From contig CAZBAS010000001.1 of NCBI GenBank assembly GCA_964490395.1, positions 83,815 through 147,814 on the forward strand: a stretch of 64,000 nucleotides of DNA, written 5' to 3'. The notes below the pieces were generated by a model. It was not told the origin of the DNA. It made no database searches and worked only from the letters and a program-made list of their open reading frames with translations. Origin of the DNA: an uncultured Candidatus Saccharibacteria bacterium (GTDB taxonomy: Bacteria; Patescibacteriota; Doudnabacteria; UBA920). The translations under genes and the position numbers were made by a program. This document shows, piece by piece, positions 44,193 through 49,828 of the stretch (positions are counted from its first letter, which is position 1; the number at the start of each line of letters is the position of its first letter).

Positions 44193-44255
44193 TTCGCCAC
44201 AATATGGAAAATGGGGTAAAATTTATCTTATACTCTAGGTTTGTTGAGTAATTTT

Positions 44256-47200
44256 ATGGCGATATCAAAAATAGATACATCAGAATTGCGGAAAATAATC
44301 ACAGGGCGCGTAGTGCCTCATATTTATTCTTTTCTCACGAATACACTTCCAAACTACCTCAAGGTTGGAGACACCTATCGTCCGATTGAAGAACGCCTCA
44401 ATGAATGGCGCAGGTTTTATAAAGATCTAGAAGAGGTTTCTCGCCACCGTGCAATTATTAATGACGAAGTATTTTTTCGAGACTACGCTGTCCACAAATA
44501 TCTGCAGCAAAAAGGCATTTCGCAAATACCACGCAATGTTTCTAAAAATGTGTACTCGAATGAGTTTTTTGAGGGCGCCAAAAAATCTGATGTATCTAAA
44601 GCGATAGAGGATATTGTAAACAATTACCGAAAAGCCGACATTTATGAGTATTATAGTTATGACGATGCTAAAAGTTTGGTTGAGTACCACCATCCACGTA
44701 CGCTAGAGTTTGCGCCGCGCCAAAATCAACAAGAGGTTATAGACAATTTTGGTATCGCAGTAAAGAAGGGGCGTACCAATCTCCTTATGTACGCGGTTAT
44801 GCGCTTCGGAAAATCCATTACCTCTATGTGGAGCGCAAAAACCATAAATTCAAAATTTACGGTAGTCGTATCAGCTAAAGCAGATGTTCATTCGGAATGG
44901 AAGCACACAATCGAAAGTCATAAGGATTTCACCGGCTACCGTTTTTTGGATAAAAATGATCTAAAAAAAGGGATGAGATTGTCAGCTCTCTATGGCCAGA
45001 AATTTAAGACCGGAAGTGGCGACGAAGAAATTTGTACAAATATCGTTCTTTTTCTTACCTTACAAGATCTGGCAGGATCAACAGACGCTATCAAGGACCA
45101 TCACAGGATATTGCAGAGCATAAAGATAAATCTACTCATTATAGACGAAACGCATTTTGGTGCGCGAGCCCCAGTTCTCGGTAAAATTTTGGCTGGAGTA
45201 GAGGTTGATGAAGAGGATAAGAAATTACTCAAGAATGATAATGAGGATTCAGAAAATCTTGGTGCGCTGAATAAGCTGGGGCCGATTAATGCCGAAGTTA
45301 ATTTGCACCTTTCTGGCACGCCATACCGCATTTTGATGGGCAGTGAATTTGAGCAGGAAGATATAATTGCATTTGTACAATTTAGCGACATTTACGAAGC
45401 AAAGTTGCAGTGGAAAAGGAAGCATTTAGACGAAGACGAATGGGATAATCCATACTATGGTTTCCCACAGATGATTCGCTTTGCCTTTAATCCTAACGAA
45501 AGCTCCCGAAAAAAACTTGTCGATATTGCGGGTGGTAAGCCCGCTGAGTTATTTGAACCAGTTAGTAAAAAAAAGAGCGGAGATTACGAAATATTCCAGC
45601 ACGAGCAGGAGATTGTCGATCTCTTGGAGGTGCTGGATGGCTCAAAAAACGACACTAACATGCTTGGCTTGTTAGATAATGAATCGGTTAAAGCTGGAAA
45701 GCTTGCGCAGCATATAGTTATTGTTTTGCCCTATTGCGCTTCATGCGATTCGCTTGAGAAGCTTGTACTTAAGAATAAAAAACTGTTTAGGAATATTTCC
45801 GAATATGAAATTTTTAACATCAGTGGTTTCAATAAGGTCCTTGCTACGCCTGAGCAGATAAAATCCGCAATTGCCAAAGCAGAAGCAGCAGGTAAAAAAA
45901 CTATTACCCTCACGGTTAATAAGATGCTTACCGGCGCTACTGTGCCCCAGTGGGATACAATGATTTACCTCAAGGGTACTGCAAGTCCGCAAGAATATGA
46001 CCAAGCGATATTCCGTCTCCAGTCACCATGGGTAAAAAGGTACGAGGGCGAAAACGGTAACGTCATCAAATACGATATGAAGCCGCAAACGCTTTTAGTA
46101 GATCTCGACCCGACGAGGTTATTTCATCTGCAGGAGCTGAAGGCTTTTACCTACGGTGCGAATACTGAAAACTTCGGTAATGAAAGGATAGAAGAATTTA
46201 TTAAGCGGGAACTGGCCATTTCGCCCATTATTACGTTAAACGCCGAAGGTAACAAGCTTGTAGAAGTAACCGCAACGAATGTTATTGACGAAGCCCGTAA
46301 GTATTCCAATAGCCGTACCATCACAGAAGACGTACAAGAAATTGGCGTTGATGTGTCTCTAAAAGATAATCCGGCAATTTTTGAAGTTATTAGTAAGCTG
46401 GCAGAGCTGGGTAGTAAGAATGGGCTAAACATAAGGCCGAACGTAGAAGAAGGTGGTGAATGGGACGGCGTAGCCTCGCAGGGTGATGTTGGGGAATTTG
46501 ATGATGCAATAGCTCGCCCTGGTAAAGACAGTTCCGGGGTTACCGAAGACATTTCCTCCTTTGAAAGACGTTTCCGGACATACTATGTAATGATTCTGCT
46601 ATTTGCATTTCTTTCAAATACCAAAGAAAAGTCTTTGGCTGATGTTATACAACATATTGACGCCGATGAAAATAATCGTCGTATTGCTCGCAACCTTGGT
46701 TTGAAAAAGTCTGACCTTGAGGTGTTTCGAAATAACCTCAACCCTTTTATCCGCTCAGAGCTCGATTATAAAATTCAGAATGCAGATTTTCGTTCAAGCG
46801 ACGACAGTATCACACCGGTTCAGCATTTAGATATTGCAATTCATAAGTTTGGTCGGCTGTCTGAAGCGGAAGTGTTTACCCCCTCTCGTATTGTTAGTAA
46901 GATGTACGACGCATTTGATGTAAAGTTCTGGCGTGGTGCTAAAGGAGTGAAAGTTCTTGATATTGCCAGTAAGTCAGGGGTTTTTGCTAAAGGTTTTGTG
47001 GAAAATGCCCTTAAACACGGATTAAAAATAGAGGAGATTAAAAATAACTTTTACTCTATTCCAACTTCACCCGCAGCGTATGAATTTACTCGTAAAATGT
47101 ACCAGGCGCTTGGTCTAAACCTGGATAATATTGCCAGACACTTTAATTCATTTGATCTTATTGCGCGGAGTGAGGAGGATGTGCGACTTCTGCTCTCGCA

Positions 47201-48263
47201 AAACAAAAAGTTTAGCGACATACGCCTTAGTGACCTCGAAAAACCTGCTAAAATGAAAGATATGAGCAATAGTAGTATGAAATTTGCAGCCGTTGTAGGA
47301 AATCCGCCGTATCAGATAAATACTGATACTAATTTTGCAAAGCCTGTTTACAATCAGTTTTTTGAATTTGCAAAAGCACTTGGTCCTAGTTATGTCGCTC
47401 TAATAATGCCAGCGCGTTTTCTGAGTAATGCAGGGGCTACCCCAAAAGAATGGAATAAAAAGATGCTTAATGATCCGCATATTTCTATTCCGATTCACGA
47501 GTTAGAGTCCGAGAAGGTTTTTACAGGTGTAGACATAAAAGGCGGTATTGTCGTAGTGTTTTGGGACAAGAGTAATCCAAGTGGTGGTTTAGGGGGGCGA
47601 TATATCCGGTCGGAAGAGTTGAAGCTGGTATTGGCAAAAACCAAAACTGGTGGATTCGACGCTGTCGTAGGGCCAAGGGGGGAAACAAAACTAAAGATCG
47701 TTCTAGATGAAAAATACCCTAATGATTTACGTATTGCACCGAATTATTTCGAAAGGTTCCCCAATGTATTTAAAAAAATACAAGATTCCAAACACCAAAT
47801 AAAGATAATAGGTTTAGAAAAAGGGAATAAGAGAACCTCGCGATATATTAGCCAGGATATAGTTAACGACCCTAAGCTCAAAAAGTGGAAAGTATTTTTG
47901 CCAGAATCAAATGGAAGTGGCGCAATCGGTGAGGTGTTGAGTACGCCCCTTGTAGGGGAACCCCTTGTAGGGTGTACGTATACTTTCTTGCAAGTTGGCT
48001 CGTTTAATAGTCGGCTAGAAGCCGAAAGTTGCATGAAGTATATTAAAACCAAGTTCTGTCGCGCTCTGCTCGGTACTATCAAGATTACCCAGCACAATAC
48101 GAGAGACGTGTGGAAGAATGTACCTGTTCAAGATTTTACCAAAAAATCGGATATCGACTGGACGAAATCTATTACTGATATAGATAAACAGCTTTATAAA
48201 AAGTACGGCCTTGATAAGCATGAGATAGATTTTATTGAAGCTAATGTCAAAGCCATGAACTAG
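44256..48263 (+). CDS. Single-polypeptide restriction-modification-like enzyme: N-terminal GIY-YIG-like module, Type III-Res-like SF2 helicase, and gamma-class (Eco57I-like) N6-adenine DNA methyltransferase with a C-terminal specificity region
   Basis: Residues about 25-80 resemble GIY-YIG (HIYSFLTNTLPNYLKVGDTYRPIEERLNEWRRFYKDLEE; compare I-TevI ..FEKRWKRHFKDLEKG). Helicase motifs are FAPRQNQQE, Walker A MRFGKSITS, IIDETH, SGTPYR and QAIFRLQSP. MTase motif X (EVFTPSRIVSKM), motif I (VLDIASKSGVFAKGF) and motif IV (GNPPYQ at 47301..47312) follow. A TTG at 44241 is an alternative start. Confidence 0.85.
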   Translation: MAISKIDTSELRKIITGRVVPHIYSFLTNTLPNYLKVGDTYRPIEERLNEWRRFYKDLEEVSRHRAIINDEVFFRDYAVHKYLQQKGISQIPRNVSKNVYSNEFFEGAKKSDVSKAIEDIVNNYRKADIYEYYSYDDAKSLVEYHHPRTLEFAPRQNQQEVIDNFGIAVKKGRTNLLMYAVMRFGKSITSMWSAKTINSKFTVVVSAKADVHSEWKHTIESHKDFTGYRFLDKNDLKKGMRLSALYGQKFKTGSGDEEICTNIVLFLTLQDLAGSTDAIKDHHRILQSIKINLLIIDETHFGARAPVLGKILAGVEVDEEDKKLLKNDNEDSENLGALNKLGPINAEVNLHLSGTPYRILMGSEFEQEDIIAFVQFSDIYEAKLQWKRKHLDEDEWDNPYYGFPQMIRFAFNPNESSRKKLVDIAGGKPAELFEPVSKKKSGDYEIFQHEQEIVDLLEVLDGSKNDTNMLGLLDNESVKAGKLAQHIVIVLPYCASCDSLEKLVLKNKKLFRNISEYEIFNISGFNKVLATPEQIKSAIAKAEAAGKKTITLTVNKMLTGATVPQWDTMIYLKGTASPQEYDQAIFRLQSPWVKRYEGENGNVIKYDMKPQTLLVDLDPTRLFHLQELKAFTYGANTENFGNERIEEFIKRELAISPIITLNAEGNKLVEVTATNVIDEARKYSNSRTITEDVQEIGVDVSLKDNPAIFEVISKLAELGSKNGLNIRPNVEEGGEWDGVASQGDVGEFDDAIARPGKDSSGVTEDISSFERRFRTYYVMILLFAFLSNTKEKSLADVIQHIDADENNRRIARNLGLKKSDLEVFRNNLNPFIRSELDYKIQNADFRSSDDSITPVQHLDIAIHKFGRLSEAEVFTPSRIVSKMYDAFDVKFWRGAKGVKVLDIASKSGVFAKGFVENALKHGLKIEEIKNNFYSIPTSPAAYEFTRKMYQALGLNLDNIARHFNSFDLIARSEEDVRLLLSQNKKFSDIRLSDLEKPAKMKDMSNSSMKFAAVVGNPPYQINTDTNFAKPVYNQFFEFAKALGPSYVALIMPARFLSNAGATPKEWNKKMLNDPHISIPIHELESEKVFTGVDIKGGIVVVFWDKSNPSGGLGGRYIRSEELKLVLAKTKTGGFDAVVGPRGETKLKIVLDEKYPNDLRIAPNYFERFPNVFKKIQDSKHQIKIIGLEKGNKRTSRYISQDIVNDPKLKKWKVFLPESNGSGAIGEVLSTPLVGEPLVGCTYTFLQVGSFNSRLEAESCMKYIKTKFCRALLGTIKITQHNTRDVWKNVPVQDFTKKSDIDWTKSITDIDKQLYKKYGLDKHEIDFIEANVKAMN

Positions 48264-48264
48264 C

Positions 48265-49185
48265 ATGGTAAGAACAATAAACGCCGACATTTTAGAAAAT
48301 ACGCTTCGGCGGGCTGATGACCTGCTTGATATTCTTTTGTTAGATCGTACTACAGGCAAGAATATTATTTGGGCAACCGATTCGTATGAAACTTGCGGCA
48401 AGGCGTTTGCGCCTCGTGGATGCGTTAAACCAGAATTAGTTACTGGTAAGGTCTATGGCAAGCTTATTCAGCCGCGTGCAGTAAAAAGCCAAGAAGAACA
48501 GCGCCGTCGCACGAAAGATAAAGGCGAAGTGTTTACGCCACTCAAAATTGTCGATCAAATGAATAGATTGACCGATACGGTTTCTGTGAATGAATTGAAT
48601 TGGCAAGAATATATTGCTGAGCTCAAACTCGAAATAGCATGCGGCGAGGCGCCATTTATCGTCAGCCGTTATAATCCCATCGCTCAGGGTGTAGTAATAA
48701 AAATTGAGAATCGTGTGGGGTTTCTTGATAGGAAACTTCAAATTATCTCAAAGTACTGTTCAAAACAAAAAGAATGGTTGAAGTGGGTAAAACTAGCATA
48801 TCAAAGCTCTTACGGTTATGAGTGGCAGGGTGATAGTTTGCTTATTGCTCGCGAGAACTTATTATATACTTTGATTGATTACTACAATGAACAATTTGGT
48901 CGTAAGCCGTCAATTACCATACAGCGTGAATTCGCCGAAATAATTAGCTGGAATATTTTTCAAATGGATGGTCTAAAATATGTTGTGCCAATGAGCTGTA
49001 CAGATGGAATTAAGGGTGGACCTGTTCAATTAACGCTTTTTGGGGAAATCGCAAGTATTCCTAAGAAACAAGTATGCGAAGGCTGTAAATATAATAATCC
49101 AAAAAAACACAACGGTAAGTATGTTAAGATTATGGATTGGACTAAAAATAGAGCTGTAAGATTTGTGGACCTGATAAAATCTTAA
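48265..49185 (+). CDS. Degenerate gamma-MTase-like protein (motifs X and I present, no NPPY), a putative specificity or regulatory partner of the fused enzyme
   Basis: GEVFTPLKIVDQM and LEIACGEAPFIV with TaqI-like spacing, and no DPPY/NPPY. The start overlaps the upstream stop codon (TAGcATG). A C-terminal CEGC motif is present. Confidence 0.55.
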   Translation: MVRTINADILENTLRRADDLLDILLLDRTTGKNIIWATDSYETCGKAFAPRGCVKPELVTGKVYGKLIQPRAVKSQEEQRRRTKDKGEVFTPLKIVDQMNRLTDTVSVNELNWQEYIAELKLEIACGEAPFIVSRYNPIAQGVVIKIENRVGFLDRKLQIISKYCSKQKEWLKWVKLAYQSSYGYEWQGDSLLIARENLLYTLIDYYNEQFGRKPSITIQREFAEIISWNIFQMDGLKYVVPMSCTDGIKGGPVQLTLFGEIASIPKKQVCEGCKYNNPKKHNGKYVKIMDWTKNRAVRFVDLIKS

Positions 49186-49628: not shown

Positions 49629-49828
49629 AATATTTCATTACAAGGGTGACCCTTGTAATAGCAGTAGGGGGTTTCTTCGAAGCTGGTATGCAAAATTGCA
49701 TGTTGGCTTTTTTGTTTGGTTTTGGGTATAGTGGGGGTACGCTGGAAGTGTAAATGTGGAATTATAGGATGCGCCTGAAAAGGGTTACCCTTTTGTGGCG
49801 CGGCAGAGCAATTATTTTTTGAAACAAA

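Follow-up and report, generated by a model that had tools for sequence, protein, structure and literature searches.

The 64,000-bp stretch analyzed here (the window: positions 83,815 to 147,814 of contig CAZBAS010000001.1, assembly GCA_964490395.1, from an uncultured Candidatus Saccharibacteria bacterium placed by GTDB in Patescibacteriota; Doudnabacteria; UBA920) contains a 306-amino-acid open reading frame (ORF) that is the N-terminal half of an Eco57I-family DNA methyltransferase. The ORF, at window positions 48265-49185 on the plus strand (ATG to TAA), ends just before the catalytic motif IV and lies beside the gene for a 1340-amino-acid helicase-methyltransferase fusion that carries a catalytic half. 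Together the two genes form a Type ISP-like restriction-modification system. We suggest, at a probability of about 0.55, that the small protein joins the catalytic half of its partner in trans and so forms the protective methyltransferase.

We refer to the small protein as NhM, the N-terminal half module (an extension followed by motifs X, I, II and III), to the catalytic and recognition half as Ch, and to a second, divergent N-half carried by the helicase protein as NhR. The motifs of one methyltransferase fold are divided between NhM, which holds X and I to III, and Ch, which holds IV onward; in some sister systems (layout A, below) the two are fused. In the window the ATG of NhM begins 1 nt past the TAG stop of the partner gene.

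A methyltransferase half that ends before motif IV

A preliminary description of the ORF held that it retains motifs X and I but has no D/N-PP-Y/F tetrapeptide. Both statements stand. Motifs X and I are conserved across 149 diverse homologues and 101 free-standing copies, far beyond chance; the expression [NDS]PP[YFWH] matches nowhere in the 306 residues of NhM, and alignment ends the protein before motif IV. The X-to-I arrangement is also as described, but the gap between the two motifs, given as about 18 residues, is 22 in NhM and 16 in the big protein.

Motif I reads LEIACGEAPF, an alanine replacing the second glycine. Its residues E123, C126, G127, E128 and P130 are kept in 99-100% of both sets of sequences, and its aligned counterpart in short N-half variants at locus L173 is the canonical LEPSAGEGAFL. 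At motif II every copy (100%) has an acidic residue, E or D, at position 186 (E186 in the window), and the segment aligns with IYGYDIDEESIDIAREN in strand 2 of the methylase 3LDU. The motif III residues N230, Q233, M234, D235 and G236 are conserved in 100% of free-standing copies; in the full-length relatives P0139 and P0147 the Pfam Eco57I profile spans the motif II/III region. R150, G152, D155 and K157, within RVGFLDRKL, are invariant among the 149 homologues. Near the C-terminus a Cys-Cys-Cys-His (Cys3His) cluster forms a putative zinc knuckle, which may bind zinc. Motifs V-VIII and the target-recognition domain are absent from NhM and are located in Ch, at the end of the neighboring gene. 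The motif II-like and motif III-like segments, the cluster and the exact ending at the boundary before motif IV all go beyond the preliminary description.

The boundary is defined by full-length relatives. About one third of the representatives at 50% identity are proteins of ~630-720 amino acids, in which NPPY follows QMDG at a distance of 60-110 residues. The whole of NhM is collinear with residues 1 to ~320 of ~650-amino-acid Eco57I-family methyltransferases, and those relatives pass PF07669. They continue with (M)KFDxxIGNPPYQ and then a C-half ending SDIDW..IDxQLYKKYGL..FIE..K.M, which is 33% identical (E=9e-45) to residues 1013-1339 of the window's partner protein. NhM ends 5-10 residues before the MKFDxxIGNPPYQ of these relatives. 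Collinearity with the N-half and the cut before motif IV thus identify the ORF as an Eco57I-family methyltransferase N-half. The methyltransferase origin proposed in the preliminary description is borne out by this collinearity with NPPY-bearing relatives, as well as by the profile match reported below. Its picture of a whole fold from which NPPY was lost by decay has to be given up: NhM is a cleanly bounded half-module, which sister systems fuse to MKFDxxIGNPPYQ and a recognition domain.

NhM has no Pfam or NCBIfam match even at E≤1 (the Pfam gathering threshold is not reached) and no match among PDB sequences; a profile search of the PDB with a 12-sequence family alignment was likewise empty, and a 23-sequence full-length profile returned a weak match to 3LDU only. 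It does match the REBASE-derived PADLOC profile PDLC03390 ("MTase_II") in two stretches (E=8.1e-96, 319 bits), the best of which pairs NhM residues 110-305 with profile positions 135-324 of 327. Free Ch proteins cover a further PADLOC profile, PDLC03375 (348 positions), end to end, and full-length proteins of layout A match PDLC03390 and then PDLC03375 in tandem. The sequences of NhM and Ch are already catalogued, each half labelled as a whole enzyme; what is unrecorded is their nature as halves and their modular layouts. In NCBI and source records NhM goes under the names "restriction endonuclease subunit M", "restriction endonuclease" and "type II restriction enzyme".

The NhM family is large: clustering at 90% identity gives more than 7,970 groups and clustering at 50% gives 1,567. 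The family is present in no fewer than 577 species-representative genomes and no fewer than 552 metagenome loci. Its hosts include Patescibacteria, Bacteroidota, Bacillota, Actinomycetota, Proteobacteria, conjugative plasmids of Enterococcus faecium, dairy lactic acid bacteria and jumbo phages.

An AlphaFold2 model of NhM based on the 149 diverse sequences is compact, with a predicted local distance difference test (pLDDT) score of 94.2 and a predicted template modeling (pTM) score of 0.92; with 40 close homologues pLDDT was 60.5, and the diverse set was used instead. The model has three short strands, one at each of motifs I, II and III, and a small beta-rich insert toward the C-terminus. Foldseek returned no significant match among solved structures (best E 0.47); the weak top matches are the methyltransferase domains of DrdV, MmeI, BrxX, LlaGI, LlaBIII and BsaXI. 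Among viral models (BFVD) the matches are N-terminal regions of proteins named "N-6 DNA methylase" or adenine methyltransferase, at probabilities of 0.89-1.0. Comparison of predicted folds thus supports a methyltransferase N-half with family-specific additions.

Gene layouts and the exchange of modules

The partner protein comprises, in order, a T5orf172/GIY-YIG-like domain, a superfamily 2 (SF2) helicase-like motor, a coupler, NhR and Ch, and matches the PADLOC profile PDLC03626 (REase_MTase_IIG) over residues 11-1129 with 1030 bits. Pfam T5orf172 matches were obtained for its homologues at L086, L182 and L183, and the domain is presumably a nuclease. NhR has its own motif X (EVFTPSRIVSKM, residues 877-888) and motif I (VLDIASKSGVF, 905-915), together with FYSIPTS and FNSFDLI. 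Ch contains MKFAAVVGNPPYQ (47277-47315, partner residues 1013-1025), NPPY lying at residue 1021.

The same modules occur in other arrangements. At locus L089 a full-length methyltransferase is followed by a 1120-amino-acid T5orf172-helicase protein, whose tail contains its own motif X (NQIFTPKKVVKEM), FIDLYMKSGLY, VYGLAPTE and KLFDSL and then stops without NPPY. This tail is NhR, the module that precedes Ch in the big protein of the window. We searched all ORFs of 169 loci and the window with hidden Markov models (HMMs) of six modules: T5orf172 (T5), helicase (HEL), coupler (CPL), NhR, Ch and NhM. Three layouts were found. Layout A consists of an NhM-Ch protein of ~650 amino acids, with NPPY, followed by a T5-HEL-CPL-NhR protein of ~1100-1140 amino acids, without it (42 complete loci and 10 cut by a contig end). 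Layout B, that of the window, consists of NhM (~300-345 amino acids) and T5-HEL-CPL-NhR-Ch (~1320-1450 amino acids), and was found at 74 loci. In layout C, found at seven, NhM, Ch (~333-358 amino acids, NPPY at residue 9-12) and T5-HEL-CPL-NhR are three separate genes.

The NhM gene is conserved beside the big gene in 74 of 74 layout B loci: in 36 the big gene directly precedes the small, in 23 the small directly precedes the big, and in 15 unrelated cargo lies between them. A third conserved component between the two genes was considered for these 15 loci and rejected, the inserted genes being heterogeneous cargo. NhM genes with ample flanks and no partner number only 2-4. The partnership with a helicase-methyltransferase fusion, already recognized in the preliminary description, is therefore confirmed by the 74 loci, but it is not the unusual one imagined there; a small N-half gene is the rule for T5orf172-helicase systems.

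Layout C is not an artefact. At five divergent loci (41-66% identity) an in-frame stop after NhM is followed by a spacer of 3-7 nt, which often contains an AGGAG-like site, and an ATG; at L171 the ATG of Ch overlaps the NhM stop as ATGA, in a different frame; and at L170 Ch is a separate gene downstream of the helicase-NhR gene. The best 120 matches to the window's Ch are mostly stand-alone Eco57I-domain proteins of 326-350 amino acids, many on long contigs. With Ch so frequently a stand-alone protein, it must often pair with an N-half in trans. A Rosetta-stone fusion of NhM to T5-helicase was also seen (P0227, L087).

The Met directly before KF(D/A)xV(I/V)GNPPYQ is conserved in the fused layouts A and B and corresponds to the start codon of free Ch genes, which suggests that the fusions arose by loss of stop codons from a three-gene ancestor. 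No internal ribosome-binding site is evident before this conserved Met1013 (47277-47279) in the big gene of the window, and a scan of the 64-kb window with the module HMMs found no silent Ch or NhM cassettes elsewhere.

Two side observations concern gene order. At L029 (4928-5995) an intact NhM downstream of the big gene is accompanied by a second, fragmented copy upstream, in two pieces that may be the trace of a rearrangement between the two orders of layout B. Small helix-turn-helix genes often precede the system or part Ch from NhM (L004 3814-4020, L086 613-816, L179 6612-6815, L177 5714-5914). They resemble the controller proteins of restriction-modification operons; there is none in the window.

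Mean identity between the window and 66 layout B loci differs markedly from module to module: 54% for NhM, 53% for the tail of Ch, 41% for its catalytic part and 35% for its recognition part, compared with 33% for T5, 30% for the helicase and 29% for NhR. Individual loci are mosaics. The big protein of L017 is 69-76% identical to that of the window up to NhR and 25-32% identical in Ch, whereas for L013, L004, L010, L014 and L056 identity is ~25% up to NhR and rises to 63-70% in Ch. The breakpoint lies at partner residues ~985-1010, directly before MKFAAVVGNPPYQ (MKF..NPPY). The mosaic loci and their breakpoint mark Ch as a mobile cassette exchanged at the junction of N-half and C-half. In all-against-all comparisons of distances, helicase and NhR are strongly correlated (Spearman 0.80 in layout B), as are, to a lesser extent, the catalytic part and the remainder of Ch (0.63-0.70); the correlation of NhM with any module is at most 0.34. 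Helicase-NhR, Ch and NhM are three independently recombining units.

Of these modules NhM is the most conserved, and there is no relaxation where it is free-standing. In the 101 free-standing copies, E88, F90, T91, P92, E123, C126, G127, E128, P130, Y183, G184, the acidic residue 186, Q233, M234, D235 and G236 are 97-100% conserved, and the same holds for R135, Y136, R150, G152, D155, K157, D190, R196 and N230. Conservation in free-standing copies equals or exceeds that in 53 fused copies. The word "degenerate" in the preliminary description does not suit a protein whose residues in motifs X and I to III hardly vary. One set of residues does distinguish the layouts. Across 161 aligned copies of NhM, the Cys3His cluster and E197 mark layout B, being present in 97-100% of its copies but in 22-28% of those of layout A; for the cluster alone the figures are 97-99% in layout B, 22% in fused copies and 0% in layout C. 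These residues may have evolved to suit an NhM that exists as its own subunit.

NhR keeps FTP, the Asp and "KSG" of motif I and the motif III Asp in both layouts A and B; in both, Lys replaces the first motif I glycine and the acid of motif II is not conserved. An NhR-Ch profile is collinear with the intact methyltransferase of DrdV (7LO5) through motifs X, I and IV (E=4e-5). Alignment of the NhM profile with the NhR-Ch profile by hhalign matched motif X alone, at a probability of 9%. This rules out NhM as a close duplicate of the big enzyme's own N-half; the duplication supposed in the preliminary description is not a recent one, and on sequence grounds NhM and NhR are separate, independently evolving paralogues.

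NhM and Ch are also kept at loci that have no restriction part. In the Tenacibaculum jumbo phages PTm1 and PTm5, gp277 is Ch (345 amino acids, beginning MKFDIIVGNPPYQ), a helix-turn-helix gene follows, and gp279 is NhM (336 amino acids); there is no T5 or helicase module at this locus. Upstream of gp277 in PTm1 (L177 4017-4486) lies an unannotated NhR remnant (…GTVTPEIV…LLDISAKQGEF…FYSVPTSK), close to the NhR of the window. Its frame is broken in a run of six A residues, and with one A fewer a 500-codon frame would be continuous with Ch. Locus L026 has Ch, with 46 linker residues, and then NhM; tblastn detected no helicase or NhR remnant there. The Fusobacterium phage FNU4 has a fused NhM-Ch without a helicase.

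Plasmids of cultured bacteria show these layouts as well. Conjugative plasmids of Enterococcus faecium have a helix-turn-helix gene, NhM, a 1412-amino-acid big protein and DUF262; a Bifidobacterium longum plasmid has a three-gene system of NhM, Ch and helicase-NhR, with an IS256 insertion (L180 8002-9186) between the first two. NhM homologues were also found on plasmids of Lactiplantibacillus, Pediococcus and Loigolactobacillus. Plasmid records matching the T5-helicase-NhR part (78) exceed those with an NhM of the window's type (17). All five records inspected that lack the latter (from Bacillus cereus, Sphingopyxis, Limosilactobacillus reuteri, Lactococcus lactis and Mycolicibacterium) have an N-half gene of 208-253 amino acids beside helicase or Ch genes. 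Three of these short N-halves, scanned with Pfam, match the N6_Mtase or MmeI_Mtase profiles over their first third only (about positions 20-120); for the other two the identification comes from annotation and size. The presence of a short N-half in five of five plasmid systems makes a small N-half partner a hallmark of a wider T5orf172-helicase class. We noted that these short free-standing N-halves have a canonical motif I (for example, FLEPSAGEGAFL) and are annotated 'N-6 DNA methylase' or 'type III restriction endonuclease subunit M'. On the Limosilactobacillus reuteri plasmid (L183 8720-9649) a Mrr-family nuclease gene (Mrr_N and Mrr_cat) stands between the big and the small N-half genes, from which it follows that the nuclease component of the class varies.

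Possible roles of the free-standing half

We propose that NhM is the free-standing half, binding S-adenosylmethionine (AdoMet), of a bipartite gamma-class N6-adenine DNA methyltransferase. It would dock non-covalently on Ch, bringing strands 1-3 and the cofactor pocket beside strand 4 with NPPY, and the resulting NhM:Ch enzyme would methylate the sites of the host. Through the same Ch recognition domain the nuclease-helicase-NhR part would restrict unmodified DNA in an ATP-driven reaction, as Type ISP enzymes do. Ch would be a mobile specificity cassette, joined to either N-half or standing alone.

Several observations weigh against this proposal. Distances of NhM and Ch do not co-evolve (Spearman 0.14 in layout B and -0.01 in layout A, where the two are fused); in the mirror-tree test neither N-half co-evolves with Ch, so that the test does not discriminate between the readings. 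The big protein already possesses a collinear N-half, judging from the alignment of NhR-Ch with DrdV, and may be self-sufficient like LlaGI. The interface of NhM with Ch is one that we infer, and NhM is predicted to be a confident, compact monomer, which by itself gives no sign of an unsatisfied half-fold. The invariant charged residues R150, D155, K157, D190 and R196 lie outside the classical cofactor motifs and could mean some other activity. Pairs of Ch and NhM without restriction genes are few (L026, L023 and the phages); the frameshift in the phage NhR, located in a tract of six A residues, may stem from a sequencing error, and PTm1 and PTm5, identical at the NhR remnant, amount to one observation.

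A different explanation is that NhR and Ch make up a complete, self-sufficient enzyme of the Type ISP kind, and that NhM is an accessory subunit outside the catalytic fold. NhM might then bind AdoMet as a sensor or regulator, help in loading or assembly, or dock on NhR as one N-half on another. The collinearity with DrdV through motifs X, I and IV fits such an arrangement, as do the FTP, the Asp and Gly of motif I and the Asp of motif III that NhR keeps in both layouts, and the confident folding predicted for NhM alone. The Cys3His cluster and E197, specific to layout B, could form a docking surface, and there is a precedent for a helper-dependent methyltransferase in MANTIS MtsA/MtsB (bioRxiv 10.64898/2026.09.23.753747). 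An accessory subunit, however, leaves unexplained why Ch is so often a separate protein of ~340 amino acids without an N-half, why layout A joins NhM directly to NPPY, and why NhM and Ch are kept where the helicase (and at L026 also NhR) is gone. For a phage an orphan methyltransferase is the only useful part, and the retention of an intact NhM argues for methylation rather than control of restriction. Invariance of the cofactor motifs suits a role at the catalytic site at least as well as a role in sensing. We regard the accessory role, which takes in the sensor or regulatory subunit of the preliminary description, as less likely than assembly in trans, but as a live alternative and the strongest of them. 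The further suggestion in the preliminary description, that the small protein serves as a DNA-recognition subunit, is unsupported, the recognition domain sitting in the Ch half.

Both N-halves could instead alternate on a single Ch, with NhM:Ch carrying out modification and NhR:Ch acting as the recognition head of the motor-nuclease; exchange of one N-half for the other would switch the enzyme between modification and restriction. Every layout holds two N-halves and one Ch, both N-halves keep their own sets of motifs whether fused or orphan, and the free recombination of three units implies a generic N-half/Ch interface. A tethered N-half should nevertheless out-compete a free one, and the scheme, a matter of pure inference, strikes us as unlikely.

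More improbable still is an activity of NhM unrelated to methylation by Ch, such as recognition of modified DNA, exerted through R135, Y136, R150, D155, K157, D190 and R196. These residues are invariant in the 149 diverse homologues and are not part of the classical methyltransferase motifs, and over the whole of NhM there is no significant match to a solved structure. They are, however, equally invariant in fused full-length methyltransferases, and so are most simply part of that enzyme; the gene context, moreover, is always a methyltransferase/helicase set. Finally, the idea that NhM is merely what is left, without function, of a methyltransferase gene that was truncated, which the missing motifs IV-VIII and recognition domain might prompt, is effectively refuted by the conservation data: more than 7,900 clusters of proteins of the same length, a common end point in hundreds of species, invariant key residues with a mean identity of 54% (against 30% for the partner helicase), and a translationally coupled start 1 nt past the partner stop.

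Genomic context, known systems and implications

Coordinates of the modules, motifs and neighboring genes are collected in Table 1. The big gene, NhM and a DpnI-like gene 11 nt downstream appear to be one transcription unit, ending at a terminator-like hairpin (49679-49710) downstream of the last. The DpnI-like ORF matches the catalytic part of DpnI without its C-terminal winged-helix half. A 72%-identical copy lies directly upstream of the big gene at L052 (687-1124) and is absent from all other loci examined; present beside the system at only one other locus, the gene is not part of the core. The DUF2726 protein encoded beyond the hairpin is probably another defence-island gene. G+C content is 0.40-0.42 over window positions 44-50 kb, as against 0.45-0.48 in the flanks, which is consistent with horizontal acquisition of the locus.

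Table 1. Features of the system and its surroundings (window coordinates, except where a locus is named)
Feature	Position	Strand	Remarks
Partner gene, 1340 amino acids: T5orf172-like, SF2 helicase, coupler, NhR, Ch	44241-48263	+	Pfam ResIII, Eco57I
T5orf172/GIY-YIG-like N-terminal domain (HIYSF...YLKVGDT)	44286-44636	+	module HMM E=3e-28
SF2 helicase-like motor	44703-46337	+	Pfam ResIII and Helicase_C; module HMM E=2e-144
NhR of partner	46836-47222	+	module HMM E=3e-28
Ch of partner	47268-48260	+	module HMM E=4e-123; recognition region; conserved tail SDIDW..YKKYGL
NhM motif X-like helix GEVFTPLKIVDQM	48523-48561	+	residues 87-99; E88, F90, T91, P92 invariant
NhM motif I-like strand and loop LEIACGEAPFIV	48628-48663	+	residues 122-133; predicted strand 121-123
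NhM RVGFLDRKL, family-specific invariant motif	48712-48738	+	residues 150-158; within the insertion between motif I and strand 2
NhM motif II-like YGYEWQGD, strand 2	48811-48834	+	residues 183-190; predicted strand 182-186
NhM motif III-like WNIFQMDGL	48949-48975	+	residues 229-237; predicted strand 231-233
NhM Cys-Cys-Cys-His cluster C245, C271, C274, H282	48997-49110	+	small beta-rich C-terminal insert
DpnI-like ORF, 143 amino acids	49197-49628	+	11 nt past NhM; PF06044 E=2e-7; PADLOC methyl-directed restriction endonuclease E=1e-3
DUF2726 protein, 182 amino acids	49829-50377	+	DUF2726 E=2e-21; N-terminal hydrophobic segment
Short N-half genes of other loci	L173 2253-2933; L174 375-1127; L181 4202-4963; L182 2720-3346; L183 9666-10373; L184 3620-4312; L185 2531-3235		

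Like the Type ISP enzymes LlaGI and LlaBIII, the system unites in one large protein, and in the same order, a presumed nuclease, an SF2 motor, a coupler, a gamma N6-adenine methyltransferase with NPPY and a recognition domain. The logic is likely shared too: asymmetric sites would be hemimethylated, and ATP-driven translocation would precede cleavage. The system differs in its presumed nuclease, which is T5orf172/GIY-YIG-like rather than Mrr (the window's partner has no Mrr match), and in sequence: the LlaGI and LlaBIII chains have no detectable similarity to the big protein of the window, and a phmmer search with that protein against all PDB chains, including 5FFJ and 4XQK, gave no match at E≤1. 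LlaGI is, furthermore, a single polypeptide, whereas the class described here always adds a small N-half gene and has a catalytic half that is detachable or movable. With domains of the Eco57I family and Type IIG-IIL enzymes (PF07669; DrdV, 7LO5; MmeI, 5HR4) it shares the gamma motif order X, I, II, III, IV; compared with PF07669 enzymes, NhM adds an N-terminal extension of ~85 residues, an insertion of ~50 residues after motif I and the Cys3His insert.

Methyltransferases made of two polypeptides are known in nature for the cytosine-5 class only, from M.AquI and M.EcoHK31I, whose motifs are split between separately encoded polypeptides that necessarily associate (PMC3404938). Those enzymes are split late, after motif VIII or with only motif IX separate. 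NhM and Ch, in contrast, are of the N6-adenine gamma class and are cut between motifs III and IV, and would assemble in trans; their system, moreover, has a second paralogous N-half and a catalytic half that moves between genes. The DnmA-YeeB-YeeC system of Bacillus subtilis and Vibrio (PMC9973331) likewise combines a gamma adenine methyltransferase, an SF2 helicase and a T5orf172 protein in a defence-island operon, but its DnmA is complete and MmeI-like, the helicase and T5orf172 are on separate proteins, and no half-modules are described. MANTIS, DnmA-YeeB-YeeC and LlaGI-type enzymes were each considered as the identity of the window's system and rejected; they share its logic without being the same system. 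We found no description of the NhM/Ch split architecture in the searchable literature.

If NhM and Ch do assemble in trans, they would constitute, to our knowledge, the first natural N6-adenine methyltransferase split in the middle of the Rossmann fold, between motifs III and IV. Nor would it be a rarity, for the family counts thousands of proteins, and it would explain the many ~300-amino-acid proteins without a catalytic motif that are annotated as "methylase" or "restriction endonuclease". Surveys of defence systems and methylomes count such half genes as whole enzymes. Cultured hosts and small plasmids carry the system, which makes experiments straightforward. The constant pair of alternative N-halves raises the question of how an enzyme so like a single chain separates modification from restriction; should the N-halves indeed alternate, exchange of the Ch cassette would re-program both together. 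Recombination of Ch at one fixed junction represents a natural route, and a template for engineering, by which a motor-driven restriction enzyme may be given a new specificity.

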